18,103 nucleotides of DNA, from positions 1-18,103 of the forward strand of contig CAKOTD010000024.1 in NCBI GenBank assembly GCA_934120015.1, read 5' to 3'. The stretch's first letter is position 1. Every line of letters starts with the position of its first letter. Below the pieces are notes generated by a model. That model was not told where the DNA came from and ran no database searches. It was given only the letters and a program-made list of their open reading frames with translations. This stretch comes from an uncultured Bacilli bacterium (GTDB taxonomy: Bacteria > Bacillota_I > Bacilli_A > RF39 > UBA660). This document shows, one piece after another, positions 373-17,346 of this stretch. Position numbers and translations under genes: made by a program.

Positions 373-1074
373 TTAGTATGAATTATTTTTGTTTTTTATA
401 TACTCTTTGAGCATTTTTGTAAGTGCTCTTTTTTCTATTCTTGAAACATAACTTCTTGAAATACCTAGTTCTTTAGCAATTTCTTTTTGTGTTATTTCAT
501 CACATCCATTTAAACCATATCTTTTAATAATAATATCTTTTTCTCTATCATTTAAGGTTTTAAAGTAATTTTTTAATAATTCTAAATTATTTTGATTGTG
601 CAAATCTAGTGCAAAATCAGGCTTAGGTGTTTTTAAAATATCTATAAATGTAATTTCATTACCATCTTTATCAAAGCCAACAGATTCATTTATGCTTATA
701 TTTTTACTATTTTTTTTATTGCTACGATAATACATTCTGATTTCATTTTCAATACATCTTGCACAATACGTAGTTATTCTAGTTCCATGTTTATATGAAT
801 AACTATCTATACCTTTTATTAACCCAATAGTTCCAATACTAATTAGATCATCAGCATCATCTTTTTTATGATCATATTTTTTTACAATATGGGCAACTAA
901 TCTAAGATTATGTTCTATAAGCTTGCTTCTAGCCTCTTTATCTCCTTTAAGTGCTAGTTCGACATATTTTTCTTCATCTTCTTTAGAAAGGGGATCAGGA
1001 AAAATATTATTAGAATATGCAGCTGTAAAAAGATAAAAGTCTTTAAATAATAAATTAATTAATTTCCTTAACAT
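373..1074 (-). CDS. sigK: Sporulation sigma factor SigK precursor (pro-sigma-K), uninterrupted
   Basis: ORF 373..1083(-). Motifs are collinear with B. subtilis SigK as I remember it: NNIFPDPLS at the pro-sequence junction, LIEHNLRLVAHIVKKY, DLISIGTIGLIKGI, ARCIENEI, ISRSYVSRIEKRAL. I place the start at ATG 1074..1072 (MLRKLINLL...) because AGGAG (plus-strand CTCCT 1083-1087) lies 8 nt upstream. The GTG at 1083 used by the ORF track sits inside that RBS. There is no skin-type insertion. Confidence 0.85.
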   Translation of the reverse strand: MLRKLINLLFKDFYLFTAAYSNNIFPDPLSKEDEEKYVELALKGDKEARSKLIEHNLRLVAHIVKKYDHKKDDADDLISIGTIGLIKGIDSYSYKHGTRITTYCARCIENEIRMYYRSNKKNSKNISINESVGFDKDGNEITFIDILKTPKPDFALDLHNQNNLELLKNYFKTLNDREKDIIIKRYGLNGCDEITQKEIAKELGISRSYVSRIEKRALTKMLKEYIKNKNNSY

Positions 1075-1117
1075 ATATCTCACTCCTAATAAAAGATTAT
1101 GTTTTTATTTTCCAATA

Positions 1118-1146: not shown

Positions 1147-1169
1147 ATTTGAAAAGTTGGGTGAAAAGT

Positions 1170-2384
1170 ATGATGAATGTGAATTTTGAAACAATGAAGA
1201 AATTTTTTGAAGTAAATAGTATGCAGGAAGAGTTATTAAGAAAAGCATTTAAATTAAATAACAAATACTATTATCTTAGTCCTGATAATATAAATAGTAA
1301 AATAGCACTAGAAACTGGGATACTTTTATTTTTGGATTTGTGTGCAGATTTTGATACAATTATAGCAAGTATGATATATAGATCAACAGTTTCATTAGGA
1401 ATATCTACAGAAAAAATTAAAGAAGAATTTAATGAGGAAATAGCAAAAAAAGTAGGTTTATTAGGACTTTTCGATACAAATTTAGTTAAACCTAGTATTA
1501 ATAATAGATTTTATATGGCAAAATTAATAGGTGTTGATGTAAAAGTTCCTATTATAAAATTAGTAGAAAGAATTGTAACATTCCATTATATTGATAAACT
1601 ATCAGAACAAGAACTTGCTGATTTTGTTATTGAGACATTGGATTATTATGTACCAATAACAAAAATACTTGGTATATATAAATTAAAAAACAACTTAGAA
1701 GATTTGTGTTTTAGATTTGATAATAATTATGAAAAGACACAAGAGATAAAGAAACATATTAGTGAAAGATATAATAATATTATAACTTGTATTAAGCAAA
1801 AATTAGATAATAGCCCTATAACTTTTAAAGAAGATGTGACATTTAAAATAAATCAAAGAAGTAATTATGATATATATAGAAAAGCTTTAGAAGCAGAAAA
1901 AACAGTTGAAGAACTTAATAATGATGATGATATTAGACTTTCTGGTTTTTGTTCTATAAAGTGCTTAGTAAAAAGTAAACAAGAGTGTTATATTATGATT
2001 TATTTAATTCACCAGTTTATGCATCAAATAGGATCATTTAATGATTTTATTGGTGGAGATCAAGGAAATGAATATCATTCAATTCATACTAATGTTTTTA
2101 TTGATAATACTCTAGTAGATTTTAGGATTTGTACTAATGAAATGGATAACATTAATCATTATGGTGTTGTATCAGATTGGAAGAATAATCCTAATCTCCA
2201 AGAAAGATTGAAAAATAATTACAATTTTTATAATCAGTTACTAGCACTAGATGATTATATGGATAAAAAAGAATTTGTAAAAAGATATATTACAGATATA
2301 GTAGATGCTAAGGTAGAAAAAAATTCATATATAAATATACCTACTCAAAAAGTATTAAAAAAGTTTTATCACGATGAAGACTAA
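1170..2384 (+). CDS. Divergent RelA/SpoT-homolog N-terminal-half protein (HD-like plus synthetase-like domains, catalytic motifs degenerate, no TGS/ACT region)
   Basis: ORF 1149..2384. The ATG at 1170 is preceded by GGGTGA. Collinear with the long-RSH N-terminal half: DVKVPIIKLVERIVTFHYI...VIETLDYYVPITKILGIYKLKNNLEDLCFRF resembles DIRVILIKLADRLHNMRTL...ETLEIYAPLAxRLGIxxIKxELEDLxF. QRSNYDIYRKA, ECYIMIYLIHQF, FNDFIGGDQGNEYHSIHT and VDFRICTNEMDNINHYGV resemble GRxKHxYSIYRKM, CYxxLGxIH, FKDYIAxPKxNGYQSLHT and EVQIRTxEMHxxAExGV. The HD, RxKD and EVQIRT catalytic residues are substituted. Confidence 0.6.
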   Translation: MMNVNFETMKKFFEVNSMQEELLRKAFKLNNKYYYLSPDNINSKIALETGILLFLDLCADFDTIIASMIYRSTVSLGISTEKIKEEFNEEIAKKVGLLGLFDTNLVKPSINNRFYMAKLIGVDVKVPIIKLVERIVTFHYIDKLSEQELADFVIETLDYYVPITKILGIYKLKNNLEDLCFRFDNNYEKTQEIKKHISERYNNIITCIKQKLDNSPITFKEDVTFKINQRSNYDIYRKALEAEKTVEELNNDDDIRLSGFCSIKCLVKSKQECYIMIYLIHQFMHQIGSFNDFIGGDQGNEYHSIHTNVFIDNTLVDFRICTNEMDNINHYGVVSDWKNNPNLQERLKNNYNFYNQLLALDDYMDKKEFVKRYITDIVDAKVEKNSYINIPTQKVLKKFYHDED

Positions 2385-2453: not shown

Positions 2454-4139
2454 ATGAAAAAGATAATCTTAATATTATTTTTTTTCATTTCTTGTGTAGA
2501 TATTAAAGCAGAAGTTTTTTATTCAGATTATGGATCCTATAGTGCTTTCACAGAAGAATTTATAAAAGAAGATGATTTAATTAGTGTTGATATACAAAAA
2601 AGATATAAATTATATAATGAAATACGAAGTAATGGAAACTATTATATTGAGGGAAATAATGAGAAAGATTTTCCTTATATTGATAGGGATGATTATATTG
2701 TTACAGATTTTACTGACTGGGTAGATAAAATACCAGATTATGTTCCAAATAGAATGCTTGAAAGTAAAATTATATATGAGTATAGTAAAATGAAAAAGAT
2801 AAGATATATTCATTTATATAATTTTTATGGGAATAATGGTGTCTTTAAAATGGCAGAGTTACGTGTATATAGTAATAATATAGAAATACCTATTAAAGTA
2901 TTTTGTGAAAATTGTAGTGAAAATTTTTCACAAAATGTATTAGATGGTAATAATTATTCGGTTAGGGGATATGTTAAAAATACAACTGGATATATTAGGA
3001 TAGATTTAAATGATTATTATGATGTTGATACCTTGTTGATAGTTCCCTATGTTGCAGATTCATCGAGTGAAAAGAAACGATATTCATTAAAATTTACTAG
3101 AGAAGAGGATTTTAATAGTAGGTCTTATGTAAAGGGAAATTTTAATACTTATTTTCAACACCAAACTGAGGATATAGCAAGTCCATATTCTTTTGATAAA
3201 AAAAATTATCAAGTAGATGATCCTCTATATGAAGAAAGTAAAATTAGTGGTGGAATGGTTTTAGAAACGCTAACAACAAAAGTGGTAGAACATAAATTAT
3301 ATCGTTATAAAGATAAACTATATAGATATTATAAATATAAAAAAGAATATAGTGCTGATTATTATAGTGATAAAAATGACAAATTTAAATATATAGACAA
3401 AGAAAATTATAAACTTTATTACCGTTATAAAAAAAGGGAAAAATTTGAAATAATTGATGATTTAATAATAGATTCATACAACTTTAATTTACATAAATTT
3501 ATATTAAATAGTACATTAGATAATATTAAGGTACAAAGTAATGTTAATGAAAAAATAAATGGTATATATAGTGTTAAATTTATATTGCCATTTATAGAAA
3601 TAGAAAGAAAAGTAGTTGTTGATATTGATGAAAATAAGAAAAATGAAAAAGAAAAAATTAAGGAAGATTTAGAAAATATTAAAAATGAACAGATTAAAGA
3701 TTTAACTAATGAAAATAAAAAATTACAAGATAAATTAAATTTAGAAATTTCAGATTTAATTAAAGAATTTAATAAGTGTAAGAGCTTATTAGATGAAACC
3801 GGAAAAAATAATTTATTATTAATAAATGAAATAAATAATTGTAATCAAAGGATAATAAATCAGAATCAAAATATTGATAGTTTAAAAAGAATAAATAATA
3901 ATAATTTAGATATATATAATAAAGAAATTAATGAAATAAAATTTAGTTTAACCAATTTAGAAAATAAAAATAATAAATTGAATAATTCATATAATATGTG
4001 TTTGAATTCAAAAAAGGAGTATTATAATCAAATTAATAGTATAAAAAGTAGTAGTCATGATAAAAAGATTATTCTTTTAATAATATTACTAATTACAATT
4101 ATTTCCTCTGGTATTTATATAAAACATAAAAAAATGTAG
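2454..4139 (+). CDS. Membrane-anchored surface protein: signal peptide or possible lipobox, globular N-domain, Asn/Lys-rich coiled-coil stalk, C-terminal TM anchor
   Basis: 561-aa ORF with a GGAGGTG RBS 7 nt upstream. The N-terminus MKKIILILFFFISCVDIKA is a hydrophobic signal (FISC is lipobox-like, IKA-E is a possible signal-peptidase I site). Residues ~390-530 are heptad-like N/K/E/L-rich (EKEKIKEDLENIKNEQIKDLTNENKKLQDKLNLE...). The C-terminus KKIILLIILLITIISSGIYIKHKKM is a TM segment with a basic tail. I recognise no family. Confidence 0.65.
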   Translation: MKKIILILFFFISCVDIKAEVFYSDYGSYSAFTEEFIKEDDLISVDIQKRYKLYNEIRSNGNYYIEGNNEKDFPYIDRDDYIVTDFTDWVDKIPDYVPNRMLESKIIYEYSKMKKIRYIHLYNFYGNNGVFKMAELRVYSNNIEIPIKVFCENCSENFSQNVLDGNNYSVRGYVKNTTGYIRIDLNDYYDVDTLLIVPYVADSSSEKKRYSLKFTREEDFNSRSYVKGNFNTYFQHQTEDIASPYSFDKKNYQVDDPLYEESKISGGMVLETLTTKVVEHKLYRYKDKLYRYYKYKKEYSADYYSDKNDKFKYIDKENYKLYYRYKKREKFEIIDDLIIDSYNFNLHKFILNSTLDNIKVQSNVNEKINGIYSVKFILPFIEIERKVVVDIDENKKNEKEKIKEDLENIKNEQIKDLTNENKKLQDKLNLEISDLIKEFNKCKSLLDETGKNNLLLINEINNCNQRIINQNQNIDSLKRINNNNLDIYNKEINEIKFSLTNLENKNNKLNNSYNMCLNSKKEYYNQINSIKSSSHDKKIILLIILLITIISSGIYIKHKKM

Positions 4140-4160
4140 AATTAAAATTTATTCTAGTTT
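4137..4160 (+). terminator. Weak terminator-like hairpin after the surface-protein gene
   Basis: TAGAAT (4137-4142) pairs with ATTCTA (4151-4156) across an 8-nt loop, followed by GTTTT. The stem is AT-rich and short, so support is modest. Confidence 0.35.
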
Positions 4161-4167
4161 TGTCGAA
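4161..4167 (+). promoter_or_regulatory. Perfect Spo0A-box heptamer (TGTCGAA) upstream of spoIIAA
   Basis: TGTCGAA at 4161-4167, about 50 nt upstream of the spoIIAA ATG. In B. subtilis the spoIIA promoter is Spo0A~P activated through 0A boxes. A 7-mer can occur by chance, so the support is positional only. Confidence 0.4.
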
Positions 4168-4217
4168 TATATATTCAAATAATAATGATTGTGATAAATT
4201 TGTATTTGAGGTGATGC

Positions 4218-4562
4218 ATGTTAGAAATTGATATAGATAATAAGAAGGGATTTTTGTTCGTTAAAGTAAGTGGGGAATTAAACGAAAAAACCATTGTAAA
4301 GTGGGATAATGATGTAAAAGATTTAATAATAGATAATGGCGTTAGAAATGTTGTTTTTGATATATCAAATTTGAATAACATTGATATAAATGGTATTAAA
4401 TCTCTATATTATAGTTATAACATTTGCAGAAAGAATAAAGGTATTGCCTTTCTATGTGGTATCAGTAACTTAATAAGAGAAAAACTTAATAAAAGTAATA
4501 TCTTAAATTATATTAATGAAGTAAAAGATGAAAAAACAATATTATCTATTATAACATTATAG
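4218..4562 (+). CDS. spoIIAA: STAS-domain anti-sigma-factor antagonist, SpoIIAA-like, with the phospho-acceptor serine replaced
   Basis: 114-aa ORF with a GAGGTG RBS. It aligns without gaps to B. subtilis SpoIIAA over ~100 aa (SGEL, VRNVVFDISNLNNIDINGIKSL versus [23 protein letters not shown]). It sits immediately upstream of sigF. The D-S58-S-G position is D-I-N-G here (Ile codon ATA at 4386-4388). Confidence 0.8.
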   Translation: MLEIDIDNKKGFLFVKVSGELNEKTIVKWDNDVKDLIIDNGVRNVVFDISNLNNIDINGIKSLYYSYNICRKNKGIAFLCGISNLIREKLNKSNILNYINEVKDEKTILSIITL

Positions 4563-4569
4563 GAGAGAT

Positions 4570-5229
4570 ATGATTGATAATGAAGAACTGATTATTAATA
4601 ATCAAAACTTAATTTATTATATTATTAATACATATTTTGGAAACTATCAAAATAAAAATGATCTTTTTCAGGTTGGCTGCATTGGATTAATTAAAGCTAG
4701 TAAAAATTATAATCAACAATACAATACTAAATTTTCTACATATGCATTTTCCTATATAATGGGTGAAATAAAGAATTATATAAGAAGTGATAAGGGAATA
4801 AAAATTAGTCATGATATGCAAAAAATTGCTTACAAAGTAGAAAAAGTTAGAATTATGTTATATCAAAAATTAATGCGTGAACCAACTATAGAAGAATTAT
4901 CAAACTTTTTAAATATTCAAGAACAAAAGTTAAAAGAAATTATGTGCATACCAACAGGTATACAAAGCTTGGATGAAACATTTGATGATTCAGATAATGA
5001 TTATTATGAATATGTTGCTAGTGATCAAAATAGGAATATTGATGATATAATTGCTTTAAGAGATAGTATAAAAGATTTAAATGAGCTTGAACAAAAAATA
5101 ATTAAAATTAGATACAAATATGATATGACACAAACAGAAACAGCTAAAATATTAGGCATGAGTCAGGTTCAGGTTTCAAGAAATGAAAAAAAAGTTTTGA
5201 TAAAATTAAGAGACAAATTACGTGTGTAA
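4570..5229 (+). CDS. sigF: Forespore sigma factor of the SigF/SigG family, called sigF by position
   Basis: 219-aa ORF. An AGGAG RBS (4561-4565) overlaps the spoIIAA stop. Motifs: DLFQVGCIGLIKA, KFSTYAFSYIMGEIKNYIR, GIKISHDMQKIAYK, MSQVQVSRNEKKVL. Synteny spoIIAA-sigF-spoVA matches Bacillus and Clostridium. Some motifs (DLFQVGCIGL, IAYK) look as close to SigG as to SigF. It is short at the N-terminus compared with B. subtilis SigF. Confidence 0.8.
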   Translation: MIDNEELIINNQNLIYYIINTYFGNYQNKNDLFQVGCIGLIKASKNYNQQYNTKFSTYAFSYIMGEIKNYIRSDKGIKISHDMQKIAYKVEKVRIMLYQKLMREPTIEELSNFLNIQEQKLKEIMCIPTGIQSLDETFDDSDNDYYEYVASDQNRNIDDIIALRDSIKDLNELEQKIIKIRYKYDMTQTETAKILGMSQVQVSRNEKKVLIKLRDKLRV

Positions 5230-5241
5230 TTTGTCTTTTTG
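5211..5241 (+). terminator. Rho-independent terminator of the spoIIA operon
   Basis: Perfect 10-bp stem AGACAAATTA (5211-5220) / TAATTTGTCT (5227-5236) with loop CGTGTG, followed by TTTT. The hairpin contains the sigF stop codon. Confidence 0.7.
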
Positions 5242-5270
5242 TATAAAGTTAAATCTTTTCTCCCATAATA
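5241..5270 (+). promoter_or_regulatory. Sigma-G/sigma-F-type forespore promoter for spoVA (GTATA-N18-CATAATA)
   Basis: GTATA at 5241-5245, an 18-nt spacer, CATAATA at 5264-5270. This matches the B. subtilis sigma-G consensus GHATR-N17/18-CATXHTA as I recall it. It lies directly upstream of the AGGAGG RBS of spoVAC, and spoVA is sigma-G dependent in B. subtilis. Confidence 0.55.
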
Positions 5271-5288
5271 GTTAAGAGGAGGAAAGAT

Positions 5289-5729
5289 ATGGAAAAAAAT
5301 AAATACAAGAAAATTGTAAAAAAGTATACACCAAATGAGAATAGAATTTATAATGGCTTAATTGCTTTTATAACAGGGGGACTAATGGGAATGTTAGGAC
5401 AATTTTTACTTGAAGTTTATTCATATTTCTTAAATATTCCTACTAAGGAAGCAGGAACCTTTATGATTATAACTTTAATAGCAATTGGTTGTCTACTTAC
5501 TTGTTTTGGCTTCTTTGATAAAATAGTTAACTTTTGTAAAGCTGGTTTATTAATACCAATAACAGGTTTTGCTCATTCAATGATGAGTGCAGCACTTGAA
5601 TATAAAAAAGAGGGATTAGTTACAGGTATAGGCGCTAATATGTTTAAATTAGCAGGAACTGTAATTGTTTTCGGAGTAGTATCTGCCTATGTTTTTGGTT
5701 TAATTAGAATAATAATATTTGGAGGCTAA
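5289..5729 (+). CDS. spoVAC: Stage V sporulation protein AC (dipicolinate channel component)
   Basis: 146-aa polytopic membrane protein with a GAGGAGG RBS. It shows the typical SpoVAC/SpoVAEb-family pattern (GGLMGMLGQ..., PITGFAHSM, GANMFKLAG) and is the first gene of a spoVAC-AD-AEb triplet. Confidence 0.88.
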   Translation: MEKNKYKKIVKKYTPNENRIYNGLIAFITGGLMGMLGQFLLEVYSYFLNIPTKEAGTFMIITLIAIGCLLTCFGFFDKIVNFCKAGLLIPITGFAHSMMSAALEYKKEGLVTGIGANMFKLAGTVIVFGVVSAYVFGLIRIIIFGG

Positions 5730-5730
5730 G

Positions 5731-6720
5731 ATGACAATAAAATATGATAATGTTTATATAAATGAAACTGCAACAGTTACTGGTCCTTATGAGAAAAAAG
5801 GACCATTACAAGGATATTTTGATAAAGGCTATGATGACTTTTATTTTGGAATGCCAACATGGGAACAAGCTGAAGGTAAACTTATAGAGGAGTCTATAGA
5901 TATTTTACTTGCAAAAATAGGTAAAACAAGATTTGATATAGATCTTCATATTTCAGGAGACTTATTAAATCAAATAGTTGCTTCTAACTATGCCTCTGCA
6001 TCTTTAGAAATACCTTTTTTAGGTATATATAATGCTTGTGCAACTAGTGTTGAAGGTATAATAATTGCTTCTAATATGATTGAAAGCAAACAGATTAAAA
6101 ACTGCATTTGTAGTGTATCATCACATAATAATGCAGCAGAAAAACAGTTTAGATATCCCGTCGAATATGGTGGACCTAAACCTAAAACTACAACATTTAC
6201 TACTACTGGTGGTGCAGCATGCTATATTACTTATAATAAATCTGGAATTAGGGTAGAAAGTAGTACAATAGGGATAGTTAATGATTTGGGAATAAAAGAT
6301 GCCTATAATATGGGGGCAGTAATGGCACCAGCCGCAGCTCAAACAATATATAGACACTTAAAAGATACAAAAAGGGAAGCTAACTATTATGATTTAATTT
6401 TAACAGGAGATTTAGGAATGTATGGTAAGAAAATATTAAAAGAATATATGCAAACTGAATATGGAATTGAACTAAAAAACTATAATGATACAGCAACAAT
6501 GATATATGATTTGGACAACCAGCCAGTATATGCTGGAGGTAGTGGTCCGGCATGTGCACCTCTTGTAACTTATGGCTATATATTTTCTCAGATGAAAAAG
6601 AAGAAATTAAAAAGGGTACTTTTAGTAGCAACCGGTGCTTTAATGTCAACAACAATGGTAAATCAAAAATTATCAATACCATCAGTTGCTCATGCAATTA
6701 GTTTGGAGGCTATAGAATGA
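5731..6720 (+). CDS. spoVAD: Stage V sporulation protein AD (thiolase-fold DPA-binding protein)
   Basis: ORF 5719..6720. I prefer the ATG at 5731 (MTIKYDNVYI...) because GGAGG at 5721-5725 lies 5 nt upstream, whereas the TTG at 5719 sits inside the spoVAC 3' end. Thiolase-like motifs: NACATSVEG, GGSGPACAP. Position is between spoVAC and spoVAEb. Confidence 0.88.
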   Translation: MTIKYDNVYINETATVTGPYEKKGPLQGYFDKGYDDFYFGMPTWEQAEGKLIEESIDILLAKIGKTRFDIDLHISGDLLNQIVASNYASASLEIPFLGIYNACATSVEGIIIASNMIESKQIKNCICSVSSHNNAAEKQFRYPVEYGGPKPKTTTFTTTGGAACYITYNKSGIRVESSTIGIVNDLGIKDAYNMGAVMAPAAAQTIYRHLKDTKREANYYDLILTGDLGMYGKKILKEYMQTEYGIELKNYNDTATMIYDLDNQPVYAGGSGPACAPLVTYGYIFSQMKKKKLKRVLLVATGALMSTTMVNQKLSIPSVAHAISLEAIE

Positions 6721-7067
6721 TATACTTAAATGCATTTTTATTTTGTGGATTTGTATGTTTAGTTGGACAAATAATACTTGATAATACAAAATTAACACCA
6801 GGGCACGTTACATCAATATTTGTTGTAGTTGGTGCTTTCTTAGACATATTTAGTCTTTATGATAAAATTGTTCTATGGGCAGGTGGAGGTGCTTTAGTTC
6901 CTATTACTAGTTTTGGTCATTTATTAATTCATGGAGCCCTTGAAAAAGCCGCCGATTTTGGATTTATAGGACTTGCTATGGGAATGTTTGATCTAACTTC
7001 ATCAGGAATTATTTCAGCAATAGTATTATCCTTTATTCTATCACTTTTTTTCAAACCAAAAAGTTAA
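6717..7067 (+). CDS. spoVAEB: Stage V sporulation protein AEb
   Basis: 116-aa membrane protein, a paralog of SpoVAC (GQIILDNTKLTPGHV, VPITSFGH). Its start overlaps the spoVAD stop (ATGA at 6717-6720), indicating translational coupling. Confidence 0.85.
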   Translation: MIYLNAFLFCGFVCLVGQIILDNTKLTPGHVTSIFVVVGAFLDIFSLYDKIVLWAGGGALVPITSFGHLLIHGALEKAADFGFIGLAMGMFDLTSSGIISAIVLSFILSLFFKPKS

Positions 7068-7629: not shown

Positions 7630-10600
7630 ATGAAGAAAAAAGGATTTACATTAATAGAATTATTAACAGTAATAGTAGTACTAGCAATAATCGCATTAAT
7701 AACAGTACCAATAGTAAATGGGATAACAAGAAGAGCAGAAAAATCAGCATTTAGACAAAGTGCAGTAGGAATATTAAATACAATAAAATTAGATAGGTCA
7801 AATAGTGGATATATAGCAAAAGAAGAAAATGATAAATATGAAATAAAAGATAAAAAAATATATTTTGAAGAAGAACCAATAAAAACAAAACATACTGGAG
7901 AGATAACAGGAGTAGGAGATGTATACGTAAATAAAGATGGAAGTATGGCAATAGCGTATACAAATAATAAATGGTGTGCATATAAAAGCTACGCAAATAC
8001 GACGGTAAAGATAATAAGTGGAAATTGTGAAAATGTAATAACAAAAACATGTAAAGAACCAGTATATGAGATAGAAGATGAAGAAATATGGACACAGCAA
8101 AAACAAATAAAGAGTATAGAGGCAGCAAGTGGGGAAGATTGTACAATATATTATAAGGATGAAAATGAGCAGTGGGTGAAATTTGAAAAAAGTATTATAT
8201 ATAAGCAAAATAAATTATATTTGAAATTATTAGGAACATTAAATGAAGAAACAAAATATGAAAAAGACTTGAAAATAGATAGAACAAAGCCAGATAGTAT
8301 AGAGGTAGAAGCACAATCAACAACTCCAAATACAATAACAGTAAATGTAATAGGAACAGATAATGAAAGTGGAATATCAAAATATGCATATAGTAGTGAT
8401 AATGGAGCAACATGGAGTAAATGGGTAGATGAAGACATATATACATTTGAGAATATAGAACCAGGAGCCTATAGAATAAAAGCAAAGGTATATAATGGAA
8501 CATATGGAACAAGTGGAGCAAGAGATTCACTAGGAGTATTAGAATCAGAAGCAACATTAGTAACAACAACAACATGTTCAGTTCCGAAAATAGAAGTAGA
8601 TCAAACAGGATGGGCCCAATCAAAAGTAGTAACAATAGATTATAGAAGTACAACAGGATGTGTAGGAAGTTATAGTATAGATAACGGAGTGACATGGAAT
8701 GAAGGAACAAGTGTAACAATAAGTGAAAATAATGTAAAAGTTTTAGCTCGAAATGTTGTAGGAGATAATGAAACAAGGTCAGAATTATTAATAGATAAAA
8801 TAGATAGAAGTAAACCAACAAATGTAACATATACAACTAAAACAACCCCAACAAGTATAATAGTAAATGTAATAGGAACAGATGAAGAAAGTGGAATAGA
8901 AAGATATGCCTATAGTATAGATGGAGGAAATACATGGACAGCCTGGAGGGCAGAAAATAGTTATACATTTAATAATTTAACACCAGAAACAGAATATACA
9001 ATAAAAGTAAAAGTATATAATGGAACATATAATGGAAAGTATGAAACAATTAAATATGAGACAAATACATATTCTGTAGATAAAAATGTTCAAAATAATA
9101 CAATTTACAAATATAGAATGTTAACAACAACAGATGAAACAACATGGAGTAGTGCATCAAATGAAAAAAAATTAGTACCAGCAGAGACAAATAGAATATC
9201 ATTAGTAGGAGTAGGAGGAAATAAAAAAGTAACATTAGGATGGAATAATGTAACAGGAGTAGAAACATATAGAATACAAAAATTAATAGATGGTATATAT
9301 AAGACAGTAGCAACAACTGAAGGAACTACTTATGTAGATACAGATGTAACAAATAATACAGAGTATACATATAGAGTAATATCTCAAGATGCAAAAGTAA
9401 AAAGTGTAGAATTAAAAATAAAACCAACAGAAAATCAAGAGTTAGGAATAGAAGGAATAAATGGAGATAAGCAAGTAACATTAATATGGGGAAATATAAC
9501 CGGAGTAAAGAAATATAGAATACAAAGAGTAAAGGCAGGAAGCCAAAGTAATGATGAAATGGGTGTACTAGAGTCAAATGAAACAAGGGTAGTAAAAACC
9601 ACATCATGTTTAGCACCAGAAATAACAGTAGAGCCAGCAGGAGATGTGTGGAGAACACAAAAGACTGTAACAATAACATATAAAGAAGCGGAATGTAAAG
9701 TAAGAAAATATAGTATAGATGGAGGAACTACTTGGGAAGAAACAAGTAATGATATAGTAGAAAAAACAATTACCAAGAATAATACAACAGTAATAGGCTA
9801 TGCAGGTGTAAGTGAAACAAAAGGTGAATCAGCAACATTAAAAGTAACAAAAATAGATAATACAACACCAGTAGTAAACATAATAGCAAATAAAAAGTCA
9901 GCAGGTGACGAAGTAAAAAGCAATACATGGAGTAATGAAACATTAACATATACATTTACAAAAACAACAGGAGATAGTGGAGCAACAATATATTATTGTA
10001 AAGATAAAACAAATAGTTGTGAGCCAACAACAAAGGTAACAAATACAGTATCTATGACAGATACAGGAATATACTATATAAGATATAAAGCAGTAAGTGG
10101 TGCAGGAAAAACTTCAACAGTAGATACATATACAGCTAAGGTAGATACAACAAAGCCAACCGCAGTAATAACAGTAAAAAATAGTAGTGGAAATATAGTA
10201 ACAGATGGTAAAATAGTAGATCAAACAGACACATATACAGTAACAATAGGATGTAGTGTAGGGTCATCTGGATTAAAATCTTCTTCATCAAATGTTAAAG
10301 TAGGTACAGATATAAAAAAAGAAAATACAGGAACAACGAATACAAATACATTTGATCTAACTTATAGTGATGTAAGCTATGTATGTCCTGATAAATGTAA
10401 TGAGATTGCCTCTAATGCAGGGAATAGTTGTGCAAACAACTGTACAGAAAATTGCGGGGTTGTATGTAGTAATACAGCTCTTACAGCATATAGAAATAGT
10501 TGTAAACCGGAATGTGAAGCAGCAAATACAAATGGTGGTATATATAATTGTGCTCTTTATGGAGGAACTGTTATAAATAAAATACCTGTAGTAATTACGG

Positions 10601-10857
10601 CAAATTGTACAAATAATGCCAACATAACAGGTTCTGATACAACATTTGAGTTGACATTTCAAGATGATACTACTATTGAAGATATAACCGCAGACGATTC
10701 ATCAGATGATTATTGTACATGTTATACTTCATATAATACTTTGAATACTTGTCAGTGGTATCGTAATTGTTCTTGTACAACACCAAGTGGTAGAAAGATA
10801 AATAAAACTTGCAGAAATAGTGGTAAATCTGATTCATTATGTATTTACAGATGCTAA
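7630..10857 (+). CDS. Giant (1075 aa) protein with a prepilin-type N-terminal cleavage/methylation signal, tandem Ig/FN3-like modules and a Cys-rich C-terminal region
   Basis: The N-terminus MKKKGFTLIELLTVIVVLAIIALITVPIV is the class III (type IV pilin/pseudopilin) signal G-FTLIE plus a hydrophobic helix. Module boundaries K(I/V)DxT(K/T)P recur four times. The modules are duplicated (see repeat features). FN3-like units occur (GNKKVTLGWNNVTGVETYRIQ..., GDKQVTLIWGNITGVKKYRIQ). The last 158 aa contain 18 Cys by my count. No PilB/PilC/PilD-type genes are in the window. Confidence 0.85.
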   Translation: MKKKGFTLIELLTVIVVLAIIALITVPIVNGITRRAEKSAFRQSAVGILNTIKLDRSNSGYIAKEENDKYEIKDKKIYFEEEPIKTKHTGEITGVGDVYVNKDGSMAIAYTNNKWCAYKSYANTTVKIISGNCENVITKTCKEPVYEIEDEEIWTQQKQIKSIEAASGEDCTIYYKDENEQWVKFEKSIIYKQNKLYLKLLGTLNEETKYEKDLKIDRTKPDSIEVEAQSTTPNTITVNVIGTDNESGISKYAYSSDNGATWSKWVDEDIYTFENIEPGAYRIKAKVYNGTYGTSGARDSLGVLESEATLVTTTTCSVPKIEVDQTGWAQSKVVTIDYRSTTGCVGSYSIDNGVTWNEGTSVTISENNVKVLARNVVGDNETRSELLIDKIDRSKPTNVTYTTKTTPTSIIVNVIGTDEESGIERYAYSIDGGNTWTAWRAENSYTFNNLTPETEYTIKVKVYNGTYNGKYETIKYETNTYSVDKNVQNNTIYKYRMLTTTDETTWSSASNEKKLVPAETNRISLVGVGGNKKVTLGWNNVTGVETYRIQKLIDGIYKTVATTEGTTYVDTDVTNNTEYTYRVISQDAKVKSVELKIKPTENQELGIEGINGDKQVTLIWGNITGVKKYRIQRVKAGSQSNDEMGVLESNETRVVKTTSCLAPEITVEPAGDVWRTQKTVTITYKEAECKVRKYSIDGGTTWEETSNDIVEKTITKNNTTVIGYAGVSETKGESATLKVTKIDNTTPVVNIIANKKSAGDEVKSNTWSNETLTYTFTKTTGDSGATIYYCKDKTNSCEPTTKVTNTVSMTDTGIYYIRYKAVSGAGKTSTVDTYTAKVDTTKPTAVITVKNSSGNIVTDGKIVDQTDTYTVTIGCSVGSSGLKSSSSNVKVGTDIKKENTGTTNTNTFDLTYSDVSYVCPDKCNEIASNAGNSCANNCTENCGVVCSNTALTAYRNSCKPECEAANTNGGIYNCALYGGTVINKIPVVITANCTNNANITGSDTTFELTFQDDTTIEDITADDSSDDYCTCYTSYNTLNTCQWYRNCSCTTPSGRKINKTCRNSGKSDSLCIYRC
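8272..8508 (+). repeat. Intragenic module A, copy 1 (KIDRTKP...VYNGTYG)
   Basis: KIDRTKPDSIEVEAQSTTPNTITVNVIGTDNESGISKYAYSSDNGATWSKW...YRIKAKVYNGTYG is paralogous to copy 2 at 8797-9036. The similarity is visible at nucleotide level (aaaatagatagaa..., gtaaatgtaataggaacagat, gtatataatggaacatat). Confidence 0.8.
8530..8796 (+). repeat. Intragenic module B, copy 1 (LGVLESEATLVTTTTCSVPKIEV...)
   Basis: LGVLESEATLVTTTTCSVPKIEVDQTGWAQSKVVTIDY...YSIDNGVTWNE... is paralogous to copy 2 at 9559-9849. Confidence 0.7.
8797..9036 (+). repeat. Intragenic module A, copy 2 (KIDRSKP...VYNGTYNG)
   Basis: KIDRSKPTNVTYTTKTTPTSIIVNVIGTDEESGIERYAYSIDGGNTWTAW...YTIKVKVYNGTYNG. See copy 1. Confidence 0.8.
9559..9849 (+). 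repeat. Intragenic module B, copy 2 (MGVLESNETRVVKTTSCLAPEITV...)
   Basis: MGVLESNETRVVKTTSCLAPEITVEPAGDVWRTQKTVTITY...YSIDGGTTWEE... See copy 1. Confidence 0.7.
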
Positions 10858-12916: not shown

Positions 12917-13386
12917 ACTAAAAAAATTGATTTTTCTGATGATGAATTTTGGTTTATTAATAAAATTATAAATGAACAACCAGATAATTTGGAAAAGGGT
13001 TTAGCATTAGGAAATCAATTAAGCCAATGGTTTGCTTTGTATTATTTTGACAGAATTGATAGGTTAGTTAAAGAAAAGTTAAGAATAAGGTATATGGATG
13101 ATTTTATATTGATTCATCATGATAAACGATACTTGCAATATTGTTTAGAAGAGATAAATAAAGTTTGTAATGAGAAATTAAATTTAGAACTTAATCAAAA
13201 AACACAAATTGGAATTGCATACAATGGCATAGATTTTCTTCTAAACAAAGAATGAGAAAACATATCAAAGCAATAAAAAATTGAAAAACAAATCTATTAT
13301 TGATGAAGAATATAATTAACTCTTTTAAAGCACATTTAAAATATTCTAACGAAAAATGTGATAAATTATTATCAAATATAAAATAA
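12917..13386 (+). pseudogene. Reverse transcriptase remnant (DGR-like), 5'-truncated and frameshifted
   Basis: The open frame from 12917 reads ...EKGLALGNQLSQWFALYYFDRID...RIRYMDDFILI...LNQKTQIGIAYNGIDFL. These are RT motif 4 in the [ILV]GxxxSQ form, motif 5 YMDD, and the GIDFLG-like motif 7. RT motifs 1-3 are absent (in-frame TAG at 12914-12916, no start). After the TGA at 13253-13255 the homology-like tail continues in another frame with internal stops (…IINSFKAHLKYSNEKCDKLL…, ending at TAA 13384-13386). Confidence 0.6.
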
Positions 13387-13440: not shown

Positions 13441-13461
13441 GTAATTATAGTGGTGATTAAA

Positions 13462-15378
13462 ATGAATAGTCAAGATTTAACTTTATTGTCTGAAGGACAA
13501 ATTTGGGGAAATAGTAGTGAACCTCAATTAGAAGTAATTAGAAAATACGGAACAAAAGCTGCAATTACGGATTTATGTGTTTTAACCGGTGGTTATTTAT
13601 GTGAAGATACTGATGATAATATAGATGAAGATAGATCTTTAACTGGTAGAACTAGTTATTTTTGGACTAGATCTGATGATGGCGATAATGATGTCCGCGC
13701 GGTCTATAAGAATGGTAGTAGGTACCTCAAATCTAGGTATACCCGCACTGGTGCTGTTCGCCCAGTTTTGCAATCTTCTGTAATCTTTTCCCAAATCTCC
13801 CCGAACAGAGTGAGGGGATACAATGGAACAGAAGAAGTAGAATATGGAGAATATCCTCAAAATGCTGCTGATTCAAGAATGCAAAATATACTAGAGTCAG
13901 AATATAATGGAGGAATGAATAAGACAGGAAGAAGTTACACATTTGATTCTGTAAAATATGATGCCTATGATACAGGATTTAAACCTGTAACTTATGAAGA
14001 ATACGAATATCAAGGAAAGAAATATATTCGTATAAAAGCTAACCCTAATTTTGGTGGCAGTAAATTCAAGCTTTCAAATGGTGTTGAATATAGAAAGGGT
14101 GATTACGTTTGGGTAGAAGTATCACCAGTTAAATGGTTGATAGATGATAGAACAGGAATTTTAATTTCAAAAAAAGGATTGGTTTCTGGTATAAGATTTC
14201 TTGATACTATTTATAAAGGTGATTTTGATAGAACAGAAATGAAAGAATATCTTGATAGATATATGCTTCGAGATTTAACTCAAACTGTAACATTTACTCG
14301 TGTTCAAAATATGACACCAGAAGAAAAAGCTAAATTTGAAGAAGAACAAAAACAAGCCGAAAGAAAAAGAAACCCTTATGGTTTAAAATTTGGACAAGTA
14401 AGTGAAGAAGAAATCATAAGAGGAGCAATAGAAAGTGGTGTAGCAGTATTTTTGCATGGCCCTTCATCAGAGGGTAAATCTGCAAGAGTAAAACAAATAG
14501 ATCCTACTTGCGAAATAATATATCTTCGTAATGCGACACCAGAAAGTTTAAATGGTAAAAGTGTATATAATGGATCAACAGGAGAAATGATGGATGTTCC
14601 ACCAACATGGCTTAAGAAATTACAAGAAAAATGTGAAAAGGAACCAGATAGACTTCATGTAGTATTCTTTGATGAAATAACAAATGCTCTACCAAGTATT
14701 CAAGGTATAGCGTTTAATATAGTTTTAGATAGAGAAGTAAATGGTATTTGGAAATTACCAGAAAATGCTAGAATTGTAGCAGCAGGAAATGATATGAAAG
14801 ATTCATTAGCTGCAAATCAGTTAGCAGAACCATTATTCAATAGATTTGCTCATGTATATATTAAAACAACAACCGAAGGTTGGTTAAAGTGGGCAAGTGA
14901 ACATAATATACATCCAGCAATTTATTCTTATATTGCTTATAAGAAGGGTGAAACACTCCGAAGTAAGTATGATGGTGAGAAACCTAATGCTGATCCTAGA
15001 AAATGGGAAATGGCTTCTAAAATGCTTTATGCAACAGGAAGCCCAGAAATGTTAAGGGCATTAGTAGGTGAAGATATAACAAGAGAATTTGTTGAGTTTT
15101 GTAATCAACAAGTAATAACATTAGATGATGTAATAAATGGAAATTATACCGATAGAGATATAAAGGCATTAAATACTGCTGAAAGATATGCAACAACTAT
15201 GGGATTAACGCAGGTAGACAATGATAATTTAGAAAAAGTTAGAGGATTCGTTACAGGATTAGGAGCAGAGTTTGGAGCAATTTTTGATGCTTTATGGACA
15301 CATGGTGATGAAAGTAAGTTAGAAAGACTTGCAGAAGCAAAACTTGCTGAAATGCCGGGAGGAGGTATAAGAAGATAA
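13462..15378 (+). CDS. Cassette gene 1: N-terminal beta-rich (DUF6273-like) domain fused to a MoxR/AAA_5-like AAA+ ATPase with a C-terminal helical extension
   Basis: ORF 13450..15378. I prefer ATG 13462, with GGTGA 5 nt upstream. Walker A is FLHGPSSEGKS (GPSSEGKS at 14458-14481). Walker B is HVVFFDE (DE at 14671-14676). A sensor-1-like RIVAAGND and LFNRF (Arg at 14842-14844) follow, the usual MoxR order. The N-terminal ~300 aa carry SYFWTRS...GAVRPVL and EYGEYPQ...WVEVSPVKWLIDD motifs that I associate with the Firmicute YWLRS/VRPAL domain family (DUF6273, from memory). Confidence 0.8.
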   Translation: MNSQDLTLLSEGQIWGNSSEPQLEVIRKYGTKAAITDLCVLTGGYLCEDTDDNIDEDRSLTGRTSYFWTRSDDGDNDVRAVYKNGSRYLKSRYTRTGAVRPVLQSSVIFSQISPNRVRGYNGTEEVEYGEYPQNAADSRMQNILESEYNGGMNKTGRSYTFDSVKYDAYDTGFKPVTYEEYEYQGKKYIRIKANPNFGGSKFKLSNGVEYRKGDYVWVEVSPVKWLIDDRTGILISKKGLVSGIRFLDTIYKGDFDRTEMKEYLDRYMLRDLTQTVTFTRVQNMTPEEKAKFEEEQKQAERKRNPYGLKFGQVSEEEIIRGAIESGVAVFLHGPSSEGKSARVKQIDPTCEIIYLRNATPESLNGKSVYNGSTGEMMDVPPTWLKKLQEKCEKEPDRLHVVFFDEITNALPSIQGIAFNIVLDREVNGIWKLPENARIVAAGNDMKDSLAANQLAEPLFNRFAHVYIKTTTEGWLKWASEHNIHPAIYSYIAYKKGETLRSKYDGEKPNADPRKWEMASKMLYATGSPEMLRALVGEDITREFVEFCNQQVITLDDVINGNYTDRDIKALNTAERYATTMGLTQVDNDNLEKVRGFVTGLGAEFGAIFDALWTHGDESKLERLAEAKLAEMPGGGIRR

Positions 15379-15770
15379 TGGAAACCAAGAAAGAAATATT
15401 ATTATCATATATTAAAGCAAATGTTGCACCAATATTAGTTGATTTTATATCTGGTAAGGATTTGAATGGTGTAGTTGTAGTACCTGCCAATGTTGATGTT
15501 AAAGAGTTAAATGGTCATTATGATGGAGTAGATTTTATACCTCCTAAATGGCTTAATGAAATATTAAGTACAAATGCTAATAGAATATTAGTAATTGATA
15601 AAATTGATTCGATTTCTAAAGAAGAACAATTAAAGTTTTGTGAATTATTAGAACATAGGAAAATATCTACATTTGAATTACCTAAAAGCTGTGTAATAAT
15701 TGTTACTGCAAATGAAATAAATAAAGATAAAATAAGTGAAGAAATATTTTCATTAGTTGCACGAATTTGA
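15378..15770 (+). CDS. Cassette gene 2: 130-aa degenerate paralog of the gene-1 AAA+ core (Walker A lost, Walker B DE changed to DK)
   Basis: The start overlaps the gene-1 stop (TAATG at 15376-15380). It aligns to gene 1 as follows: IPPKWLNEIL to VPPTWLKKLQ, RILVIDKID to HVVFFDEIT (DK at 15597-15602), FELPKSCVIIVTANE to WKLPENARIVAAGND. The P-loop register reads FISGKDLN instead of GPSSEGKS. Confidence 0.7.
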   Translation: METKKEILLSYIKANVAPILVDFISGKDLNGVVVVPANVDVKELNGHYDGVDFIPPKWLNEILSTNANRILVIDKIDSISKEEQLKFCELLEHRKISTFELPKSCVIIVTANEINKDKISEEIFSLVARI

Positions 15771-15780
15771 GGTGTAAGTT

Positions 15781-17346
15781 ATGAAATATGATATAGCAGC
15801 ATTAAAAAGAAAAATGCTTGTTAAATATCCTTTTTTTGGGAGTGTAGTAGCAAGTGTATGTTATAAAGAAAACAAAGATATTCCAACCGCAGGCACAGAT
15901 GGAGAAACAATATATTATAATCCGGAATATTTAGATGGATTAAGTGTTGAGGAACAAACTTTTATATTTGCCCATGAAGTATGTCATATTGCATTCAATC
16001 ATATATTGAGAAGTGAAGGTAAGAATCCTGAATTATGGAATATTGCTACTGATGGTGTTATTAATCAATTTTTAAAACGAGATGGTTTAAAAATGGCACC
16101 AGGTGGTGTTGATATGGCAGAAGCTATTAATTATGATGCTGAACAACTATATGAAAAATTATTACAAGAAAAACAGCAAGGACAACAACAAAGTGGACAA
16201 GGTAATAGTCAACAAAATCAACAACAAAGTAGTGGTGGTAGTCAAGGTGGAAATAATCAACAACAACCTCAATCACAACAACAGAATGGAGAATCACAAA
16301 ATCAAGAAAGTAAACAGCAAAGTAGTGATGGAGGACAAAGTGGTGATAATCAACAACAATCTCAATCACAGCAACAAGGTAATTCAGGTAGTGGAAGTTC
16401 ACAAGAACAAAAAAAACAATCACAAGAACAGAGTGGTGGTGAATCTGGTGAAGATTCACAAAAAGAAGATAAATCAAAACCAGATGTTGGGCATGATACT
16501 CACAGTATGTGGGAACAAGCAGTAAAAAAACATAAAGAACAACAAGAAAAAACTGATGAAAAAGAGAGTTTATTAGATAAATTATTAGGAAAAGATAAAA
16601 AAGATAAAGAGAAAACTGAACTTGAAAAGAAACAGGAAGAACTTGAAAGTATGGGAGAAAAAGATGCTTTTAAAAAGAACCTTGAAGATAAGAAAAAACA
16701 GCTTGAAGAATTAAAAGAGGCAATTTCAAAACAAGCATCACAGGCTGGTACATCAACGAATAGAGATATTAGAACAGTTAATGATATAGGTACTGCTAAA
16801 CCATTAATTGATTGGCGTTATGTTTTAAGAGAGGCAATTAAGTATGATGTTGATTGGTCTTATAAAAATGCAACATTAGAAGAGGGTGTAGTTAGTGCTA
16901 ATTTAGAAGAACAGCCAATGCCAGAAACTGAAATTGTTCTTGATACAAGTGGTTCAATAAATGAAGTATTATTAAAGAACTTTTTAAGAGAATGTAAAAA
17001 TATATTACAACATACTAAATTAAAAGTTGGATGTTTTGATACAGAATTTTATGGATTTCATGAGATTAGAACAGAAGAAGATATAGAAAAGATGCAATTT
17101 GAAGGTGGAGGAGGTACTGACTTCGACGTTGCTGTAGGTTCTTTCTCAAGACGAGTTGAAAATAAAATAATTTTTACTGATGGTGAAGCTTCAATGCCAG
17201 ATATGCCACTTGATGCAATATGGATAGTTTTTGGTGGTGAAAGAATTAATCCTAAAGGTGGTAAAGTAATTCATATAGACAATGAACAACTTGAAAGACT
17301 ATATAATTATCAAATGACTAATGAAACAAAAGGAAGGTCAAGGTAA
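15781..17346 (+). CDS. Cassette gene 3: HExxH metallopeptidase-like domain, Gln-rich low-complexity linker, Lys/Glu coiled coil and VWA-like domain with MIDAS (DUF2201_N/DUF2201-type architecture)
   Basis: GAGGTG RBS 6 nt upstream. The N-domain is YPFFGSVV...TAGTDGETIYYNPEYL...FIFAHEVCHIAFNH...LWNIATDGVINQFL (HEVCH at 15973-15987). The VWA part has EIVLDTSGSI (DTSGS at 16942-16956), GGGGTDF (Thr at 17116-17118) and IIFTDGEA (Asp at 17179-17181), a complete MIDAS set. Confidence 0.85.
   Translation: MKYDIAALKRKMLVKYPFFGSVVASVCYKENKDIPTAGTDGETIYYNPEYLDGLSVEEQTFIFAHEVCHIAFNHILRSEGKNPELWNIATDGVINQFLKRDGLKMAPGGVDMAEAINYDAEQLYEKLLQEKQQGQQQSGQGNSQQNQQQSSGGSQGGNNQQQPQSQQQNGESQNQESKQQSSDGGQSGDNQQQSQSQQQGNSGSGSSQEQKKQSQEQSGGESGEDSQKEDKSKPDVGHDTHSMWEQAVKKHKEQQEKTDEKESLLDKLLGKDKKDKEKTELEKKQEELESMGEKDAFKKNLEDKKKQLEELKEAISKQASQAGTSTNRDIRTVNDIGTAKPLIDWRYVLREAIKYDVDWSYKNATLEEGVVSANLEEQPMPETEIVLDTSGSINEVLLKNFLRECKNILQHTKLKVGCFDTEFYGFHEIRTEEDIEKMQFEGGGGTDFDVAVGSFSRRVENKIIFTDGEASMPDMPLDAIWIVFGGERINPKGGKVIHIDNEQLERLYNYQMTNETKGRSR
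16174..16460 (+). repeat. CAA/CAG-rich low-complexity tract encoding a Q/S/G/N-rich segment, with an internal 60-nt duplication
   Basis: About 97 codons, of which I count 37 Gln and no aliphatic or aromatic residues. QSSGGSQGGNNQQQPQSQQQ (16225-16284) is repeated as QSSDGGQSGDNQQQSQSQQQ (16318-16377), with 15/20 aa identical. Confidence 0.85.

Follow-up and report, generated by a model that had tools for sequence, protein, structure and literature searches.

We analyzed an 18,103-nt stretch of DNA from an uncultured Bacilli bacterium (GenBank assembly GCA_934120015.1, contig CAKOTD010000024.1), here called the window, which carries an operon derived from spoIIA. In the canonical operon, the gene for SpoIIAA, a single-domain STAS protein, is followed by spoIIAB, which encodes the kinase and anti-sigma factor, and then by sigF; together with the phosphatase SpoIIE, these make up the partner switch that controls sigma-F. 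In the window, the STAS gene is followed directly by the sigma gene, and the STAS protein has isoleucine where SpoIIAA has its phosphorylated serine. The kinase-less operon is a clade trait of low-GC RF39-type Bacilli and not a local oddity, and the textbook partner switch cannot work in this clade in its known form. A preliminary description of this DNA had suggested that the partner switch has been dismantled or rewired in this lineage, and the joint loss of the kinase gene and, in most orphan STAS proteins, of the acceptor serine across relatives supports that suggestion.

The window is very AT-rich (19 to 32% GC). The spacer between the STAS and sigma genes is 7 nt long and carries only a ribosome-binding site (AGGAGAG, 4561-4567), so there is no room for a spoIIAB of about 145 codons. 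This confirms the coordinates on which the preliminary description had based the same statement, a STAS stop ending at 4562 and a sigma start at 4570. Since, on reading the sequence, an in-frame stop precedes the ATG at 4570, the sigma open reading frame (ORF) cannot be extended upstream. A SpoIIAB hidden Markov model (HMM), described below, had zero matches in the window or in a contig of the same species (L001). We read 7 contigs that come from independent assemblies, with 5 places shown, and found the same gene order; because these assemblies repeat the STAS-sigma arrangement, an assembly artifact is excluded. Downstream, spoVAC, spoVAD and spoVAE match their Pfam and NCBIfam models at, above or just below the curated cutoffs, and the same order of spoVA genes follows the sigma gene in relatives. 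The spoVA genes, sigK and the perfect Spo0A box (4161-4167) that had been described earlier are thus all present.

We then considered how far this arrangement extends. Sigma homologs that are 50 to 64% identical to the window protein are all 218 to 222 amino acids long and come from gut metagenomes or metagenome-assembled genomes (MAGs) labelled "Firmicutes bacterium"; their contigs read STAS-sigma-spoVAC-AD-AE, with nothing interposed. Across related loci, the distance between the STAS and sigma genes runs from a 38-nt overlap to an 11-nt gap (-38 to +11 nt). Scanning one genome per GTDB species gave a set of 80 loci. We built SpoIIAB and SpoIIAA HMMs from the canonical Bacillaceae and Clostridia loci of this set and searched all six frames of each locus. 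In 48 of the 80 loci, spoIIAB lies directly 5′ of the sigma gene (192 to 238 bits), and in the other 32 the SpoIIAB model found no match up to 10 kb on each side. These 32 loci have a GC content of 23 to 33% and are labelled Bacilli, Tenericutes, Mollicutes, Mycoplasmatota or similar. Together with the window lineage, they form one clade in a neighbor-joining tree of the sigma proteins, apart from every canonical locus. A locus from Coprobacillaceae (Erysipelotrichales; L081), an outgroup near the clade, is canonical and keeps the full switch; Turicibacter, of the same order, has both SpoIIAA and SpoIIAB (PMC13492147). One member of the clade (L029) is Candidatus Coprosoma intestinipullorum, which its describers placed in the GTDB order RF39, family CAG-822 (PMC8035907). 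Members of the clade were sampled from the gut metagenomes of humans, mice, rabbits, chickens and ruminants and from anaerobic digesters.

Kinase loss and acceptor loss go together. When both sets were aligned jointly, serine stood at the acceptor position of every one of the 45 distinct SpoIIAA proteins whose gene adjoins spoIIAB, within the motif F-M-D-S-S/A-G. Among the 25 distinct STAS sequences from operons that lack spoIIAB, called orphans here, we found isoleucine or glutamate (5 each), leucine (3), cysteine, aspartate or serine (2 each), or V, M, K, T, Q or N (1 each) at this position. The expectation that serine loss would track spoIIAB loss across relatives was thus borne out, with serine in 45/45 proteins that have the kinase beside them versus 2 serines and 1 threonine in the 25 that do not. 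Over 140 orphan-family representatives, the acceptor column reads L21, E17, I16, K15, S13, N12, M9, Y9, Q7, D6, F4, V3, R3, T3, A1 and G1, and the flanking Asp56 and Gly59 are conserved at 94% and 96%. The acceptor position is thus unconstrained rather than swapped for one specific residue. A hypervariable acceptor column is what would be expected if nothing were phosphorylating it.

These comparisons depend on the identity of the STAS protein and on the register of its alignment. The ORF scores 48 bits on the Pfam STAS model, above the cutoff. The only two NCBIfam models that match it are the anti-sigma-antagonist superfamily (46.8 bits) and the SpoIIAA equivalog TIGR02886, on which it stays below the cutoff (44 versus 114.75 bits). 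Our own canonical SpoIIAA HMM gives it 36 bits, versus 91 to 165 bits for true SpoIIAA, and orphan proteins in general reach 19 to 55 bits on this model. A word-indexed homolog search with the window protein returned no match but itself, and HMMER, run exhaustively against 1.84 billion representative proteins, returned only 245 relatives at E ≤ 1e-3. We therefore assign the protein, on its sequence, to a small, distinct STAS subfamily. Compared with structures in the PDB, a profile of 50 family sequences matches Bacillus subtilis SpoIIAA (1AUZ) at E = 3e-22 without gaps and Geobacillus stearothermophilus SpoIIAA (1TH8, 1TID) at E of about 7e-22; matches to other STAS proteins are far weaker (TM1442, 1.5e-8; RsbS, 6e-4). 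An AlphaFold2 model computed with the family alignment has a mean predicted local distance difference test (pLDDT) of 95.3 and a predicted TM score (pTM) of 0.87. By fold, the model comes closest to the SpoIIAA chain of the SpoIIAB:SpoIIAA complex (1THN_B), with a TM score of 0.90 and a root mean square deviation of 1.8 Å. In the window and in its relatives, the STAS gene occupies the spoIIAA slot 5′ of sigF. Profile, fold and position all point to descent of the orphan family from SpoIIAA and not from another STAS subfamily.

In the gapless profile alignment, Ser58 of SpoIIAA stands opposite the column of Ile57, and residue 57 is the first of helix 2 in the AlphaFold2 model. The preliminary description had paired these two residues from an ungapped pairwise alignment, and both the profile and the model superposition bear it out; its remark that the next serine is replaced by asparagine is likewise right, codon 58 being AAT. 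A phosphorylatable serine at the N terminus of helix 2 defines SpoIIAA, and the window protein has Ile57 there. A shift of register that would bring the serine of FDISNL to the acceptor position was considered and rejected, since this residue, Ser50, belongs to strand 3 and the family does not conserve it. The window STAS protein is thus predicted to be non-phosphorylatable at the acceptor position.

The change goes beyond one residue. We compared 45 canonical SpoIIAA sequences with 127 orphans column by column and called a residue lost or gained when it was present in at least 80% of one set and in less than 45% of the other. G20, D57, G60 and G76 are common to both sets. The orphans have lost E21, D23, H25, A27, R/K31, F55, S58, S59, G62, G66, R67, G75 and G95, and have newly conserved an N-terminal Met-Leu, G11, F14, R16, I42, C80 and E105, with N48 in place of aspartate. 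In the SpoIIAB:SpoIIAA structures 1TH8 and 1TID, the E21-H25 region and the Ser58 loop, with residues such as D23, probably make up the SpoIIAB interface. If so, the orphans have given up the old interface, and constraint now follows a new pattern.

Selection on the family was estimated from the two closest species pairs. In the first (L015/L020), the ratio of nonsynonymous to synonymous substitution rates (dN/dS) of the STAS gene is 0.107/1.21 = 0.09, and that of the sigma gene is 0.13; in the second (L038/L044), the values are 0.113/1.16 = 0.10 and 0.14. Amino acid identity in these pairs is similar for the two proteins, 83% for STAS versus 80 to 85% for sigma, and the ORFs are intact in 26 of 26 STAS-bearing lineages. 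The orphan STAS protein is thus remodelled and kept by strong purifying selection, and is not a relic. The preliminary description was correct that the acceptor serine is gone, but the change is wider, the protein having been remodelled under purifying selection (dN/dS of about 0.1).

The downstream gene encodes a sigma factor whose best NCBIfam model is SigF (TIGR02885, 182 bits), ahead of SigG (148/136 bits) and SigB (102 bits); like the STAS protein, it stays below the equivalog cutoff (321.45 bits). A profile of the clade sigma proteins has sigma-F (1L0O_C) as its best PDB match, at E = 4e-57. By these matches, we regard the gene as sigF derived, encoding a group-3 sigma factor with regions 2 to 4. 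A column comparison of 48 canonical and 32 clade sequences, in Metabacillus numbering, revealed positions that are near-invariant in SpoIIAB-associated sigma factors and changed or variable in the clade: G56, V90, P91, I97, R99, R111 and K114. They fall in region 2 and the start of region 3.

The clade sigma proteins are also short at the N terminus, as had been pointed out, and lack about 30 residues before region 2.1 relative to Bacillus sigma-F. This shortness is not part of the kinase-loss syndrome, however, since canonical operons of the Clostridia type encode sigma factors of 217 to 227 amino acids (217 to 222 in L075, L078, L087, L090 and L091); we rejected the link. All F/G-type sigma factors recovered from the clade score higher on SigF than on SigG, and we saw no clear sigma-G ortholog among them. 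As a separate observation, two members of the clade (L026 and L043, sigma gene at about 9980-10618) encode an F-type sigma factor of 212 to 213 amino acids, also with SigF above SigG, in another setting that lacks both a STAS gene and spoVA.

The regulatory region of the operon is conserved. We aligned by eye the 130 nt 5′ of 24 STAS genes and found a common order: ctAGTTTTGTCGAAt, gTATAAAAA, about 17 nt, gtGCTAAATTAt, GAGGTGA and the ATG. A TGNCGAA box lies 49 to 65 nt 5′ of the STAS ATG in 20 of the 24 loci (TGTCGAA in 19, TGACGAA in 1), and the other 4 have boxes with one mismatch (TGTCGAT or TGTCGGA). By its conserved 0A box, the operon remains the one that Spo0A activates early in sporulation. 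A second perfect TGTCGAA, 26 nt farther 5′, is common among related loci, and at this spacing the window has a one-mismatch copy, which is suggestive of a second Spo0A-like site (4135-4141).

A kinase encoded away from the operon would change this picture, and two lines of evidence bear on it. The stronger is a survey of high-quality RF39 genomes at the level of KEGG Orthology (KO), in which spoIIAB and spoIIE were reduced or absent (Field et al. 2024, PMC10868615); it is a separate line of support, drawn from whole genomes, for the view that both kinase and phosphatase have been lost in at least part of the clade. The other comes from spoIIAB loci themselves. To the 48 loci from genomes we added a second sample, the best 80 metagenomic loci most similar to Coprobacillaceae SpoIIAB, with a GC content of 26 to 60%. 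A canonical-scoring SpoIIAA (60 to 161 bits) is encoded directly 5′ in 70 of these 80; a contig end cuts 8, and 2 were unresolved. Most of the 80 have a full-scoring sigma gene downstream. Over all 128 loci, including those of low GC, a canonical SpoIIAA adjoins 115, a contig end cuts 11, and 2 were unresolved; none of the 128 is a stand-alone spoIIAB, and none lies beside an orphan-type STAS gene. The failure to see a stand-alone spoIIAB among 128 loci is weak negative evidence.

Parts of the clade have gone further. In at least six loci (L034, L041, L057, L072, L074 and L077), the STAS gene is missing upstream and sigma-spoVAC-AD(-AE) is kept; the neighbor of the sigma gene is a dUTPase gene in L077 and a gene for a secreted protein of about 460 amino acids in L074 and L057. 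This suggests a stepwise dismantling, from AA-AB-sigma through AA*-sigma, with the remodelled STAS protein, to sigma alone. Since these sub-lineages keep the sigma and spoVA genes minus the STAS gene, sigma-F apparently works without the STAS protein. A modulatory, probably negative, role of the STAS protein is therefore favored over obligatory activation.

The account that we favor, and hold to be reasonably probable, is that spoIIAB was lost in the clade ancestor, that sigma-F is driven by Spo0A, and that the STAS protein is a phosphorylation-independent, dispensable modulator. The ancestor would have deleted spoIIAB from between spoIIAA and sigF, and the phosphorylation-driven SpoIIAA/SpoIIAB/SpoIIE switch would thereby be gone from the clade. 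Sigma-F output would be set mainly by Spo0A-driven transcription, and the STAS protein would act through a new interface, most probably negatively. One possibility is direct binding to sigma-F, with the STAS protein, co-translated in stoichiometric amounts, serving as an inhibitor or buffer. Alternatively, it may feed back on the activation of Spo0A, as unphosphorylated SpoIIAA does in B. subtilis by a negative feedback independent of SpoIIAB (Arabolaza 2003, as summarized in the review PMC8256260). We also put forward, tentatively and with considerable doubt, that RF39-type sigma-F is governed by a minimal two-protein module, with STAS as its direct phosphorylation-independent regulator, or is under no post-translational hold at all.

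Several points weigh against this account. The absence that we recorded covers flanks of about 10 kb, and a divergent anti-sigma factor, kinase or phosphatase may be encoded elsewhere in the genome. That the lost residues, D23 among them, belong to the SpoIIAB interface is presumed. A mirror-tree test of co-evolution, with SpoVAD as the control, did not set the pairs apart, giving a partial r of 0.34 for STAS and sigma versus 0.32 for STAS and SpoVAD. The placement of the window in RF39 rests on the sigma neighbor-joining tree and one named member, L029. Finally, the clade is uncultured, and spore formation in it is a prediction from genes.

The best surviving alternative, which we judge unlikely, is that the STAS protein is still an anti-anti-sigma factor and acts against a new, non-kinase anti-sigma-F factor encoded elsewhere, with control by ligand, redox, proteolysis or gene-dosage asymmetry. 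Purifying selection on the STAS protein and its newly conserved residues do suggest a new partner, and the aspartate and glycine flanking the acceptor are kept in the loop; STAS proteins acting on non-GHKL partners are also known, for example, HsbA/PA3347 on FlgM (PMC8256260). However, the secondary losses weigh against a STAS protein that relieves a hidden anti-sigma factor: in the several sigma-spoVA sub-lineages that have lost the STAS gene, sigma-F would be locked off. Moreover, neither the operon nor its flanks contain a conserved small gene as a candidate.

We consider it improbable that the sporulation program is simply decaying in host-adapted lineages, with the operon a vestige and the STAS changes the product of drift. 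The genomes are reduced, the STAS gene has been lost repeatedly, many sporulation genes have been lost in other families, and the canonical model gives low scores to the orphan STAS proteins. A vestige, however, would not be expected to combine dN/dS values of about 0.1 for both genes and intact ORFs in every STAS-bearing lineage with new invariant STAS residues and a conserved 0A box and promoter. The later sporulation genes point the same way: spoVAC, spoVAD and spoVAE stand at or near equivalog cutoffs, whereas sigK clears the SigK subfamily model but falls short of the equivalog one.

Least probable, and in our view very much so, is that a canonical spoIIAB, a second, serine-containing spoIIAA and spoIIE are encoded elsewhere and that the window STAS gene is an extra paralog: KO-based absence can miss divergent genes, but all of the checkable spoIIAB loci except 2 were in the AA-AB-sigma context, the window sigma factor is the sigma-F ortholog and every F/G-type sigma factor recovered from the clade is of the same type, and the positions invariant in SpoIIAB-regulated sigma factors are altered in the clade.

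The features of the operon and of its neighborhood are collected in the table.

Table. Coordinates of the spoIIA-derived operon and neighboring features in the window
Feature	Position	Strand	Basis or remark
sigK	373-1083	-	Passes the subfamily SigK model, fails the equivalog model (NCBIfam)
Upstream gene, 561 amino acids	2454-4139	+	Signal peptide, conserved N-terminal domain of ~330 amino acids, coiled coil, C-terminal transmembrane helix
Putative second, degenerate Spo0A-like box, TGTAGAA	4135-4141	+	One mismatch; 26 nt 5′ of the perfect box, overlaps the stop codon of the upstream gene
Perfect Spo0A box, TGTCGAA, in conserved block ctAGTTTTGTCGAAt	4161-4167	+	57 nt 5′ of the STAS start codon
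-10-like promoter block, GTGATAAATTT (relatives, gtGCTAAATTAt)	4191-4201	+	By-eye alignment
STAS gene (SpoIIAA-derived, orphan), 114 amino acids	4218-4562	+	ORF, TAG stop at 4560-4562; Pfam STAS
Acceptor-homologous codon ATA, Ile57	4386-4388	+	Homologous to Ser58 of B. subtilis SpoIIAA
Sigma-F ortholog gene, 219 amino acids, regions 2, 3 and 4	4570-5229	+	ORF, ATG at 4570; Pfam Sigma70 r2/r3/r4
GTATA (5241-5245), 18 nt, CATAATA (5264-5270), before spoVAC	5241-5270	+	Sequence reading
spoVAC	5289-5729	+	Pfam/NCBIfam
spoVAD	ORF 5719-6720, probable start ~5731	+	Pfam/NCBIfam
spoVAE	6717-7067	+	Pfam/NCBIfam

The site between the sigma gene and spoVAC is a putative forespore-type promoter, resembling the B. 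subtilis sigma-F/G consensus. At the other end of the operon, at least 13 related loci encode homologs of the 561-amino-acid upstream protein (370 to 630 amino acids) immediately 5′ of STAS (those named are L012 to L015, L017, L018, L020, L021, L035, L038, L044 and L069). No Pfam or NCBIfam family matched the window protein. Its AlphaFold2 model has a pLDDT of 47, and only a beta-sandwich at residues ~115 to 215 reaches 60 to 80. The gene is tied to the operon by position alone. It fills the slot that dacF has in Bacillus. In contig L001, about 4.2 kb 5′ of the STAS gene and upstream of sigK, a segment (4571-5779, minus strand) carries a transposase of the Transposase_mut family, along with a truncated, DacF-like piece of Peptidase_S11, which hints at local rearrangement near the operon.

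Other genes of the window deserve mention. Between sigK and the operon lies a gene for a RelA/SpoT-family protein of 411 amino acids (1149-2384, plus strand) with HD and synthetase regions and without the C-terminal regulatory domains; this short gene is held in the same place in the same-species contigs L001 to L003. Beyond the spoVA genes, 7630-10857 (plus strand) encodes a protein of 1,075 amino acids with a type-IV-pilin-like methylation motif at its N terminus, FN3 and BNR-like repeats and a C terminus rich in cysteine. In L034 and the RF39 locus L029, short pilin-like genes lie between sigF and spoVAC as well. An 88-amino-acid ORF (12989-13255, plus strand) resembles the C-terminal part of an RVT_1 reverse transcriptase, at 26.6 bits, just below the cutoff, and is probably what remains of a group II intron or of an element of the retron type. 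A three-gene block of slightly higher GC (about 29 to 32%) follows at 13450-17346 (plus strand), encoding proteins of 642 amino acids (no family match), 130 amino acids and 521 amino acids. The last is a DUF2201 protein with a putative metallopeptidase domain and a VWA-like domain joined by a long Gln/Ser/Gly-rich linker. The block may be a mobile or defense-type module.

The clade keeps sigF, sigK, spoVA and Spo0A control yet does without the kinase, and the antagonist has been re-purposed and not discarded. It is a natural experiment on the minimum needed to start sporulation and on other roles of SpoIIAA-type STAS proteins. If the two-protein module, or the lack of any hold, proves true, endospore development can start without a switch regarded as universal. 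In practical terms, sporulation predictors that use canonical marker genes will misjudge these lineages.

Compared with the canonical spoIIA operon of Bacillus, Geobacillus and Clostridia, with its SpoIIE (structures 1AUZ, 1TH8/1THN/1TID and 1L0O), the window operon has orthologs of the STAS and sigma genes in the same order and tightly coupled, with Spo0A-box control and spoVA genes nearby. It differs in that spoIIAB is absent, the acceptor Ser58 is replaced, further SpoIIAA invariants are lost, and both proteins fall below equivalog cutoffs. Set beside a partner-switching module, it has neither an adjacent kinase nor a phospho-acceptor. Another departure from the textbook is RsfA of Mycobacterium tuberculosis, a non-phosphorylatable anti-anti-sigma factor reportedly described by Beaucher and colleagues in 2002 (cited in PMC8256260). 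Like the window protein, RsfA is a STAS antagonist in a sigma-F system outside serine-phosphorylation control. The GHKL-type anti-sigma factor on which it acts (UsfX/RsbW) is present in the genome, however, whereas none is found near the window operon or, going by the literature, in the order RF39. SypA, RbaV, HmpV and HsbA/PA3347-FlgM are likewise single-domain STAS systems whose output is not through sequestration of a GHKL anti-sigma factor, or whose targets are unknown (PMC8256260). Each of these has retained the conserved serine and has its own kinase and phosphatase, in contrast to the orphan family, which has no conserved serine and no adjacent kinase or phosphatase. Absence of spoIIAB and spoIIE in RF39 at the gene level is already published, in the 2024 survey cited above; that work found the same clade-level loss in high-quality MAGs, as a list of gene presence and absence only. 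Literature searches brought up no earlier description of how the operon is built, of the lack of constraint on the acceptor, of remodelling and selection in the STAS protein, of the footprint on sigma-F, of the conserved 0A promoter or of the secondary losses of STAS.

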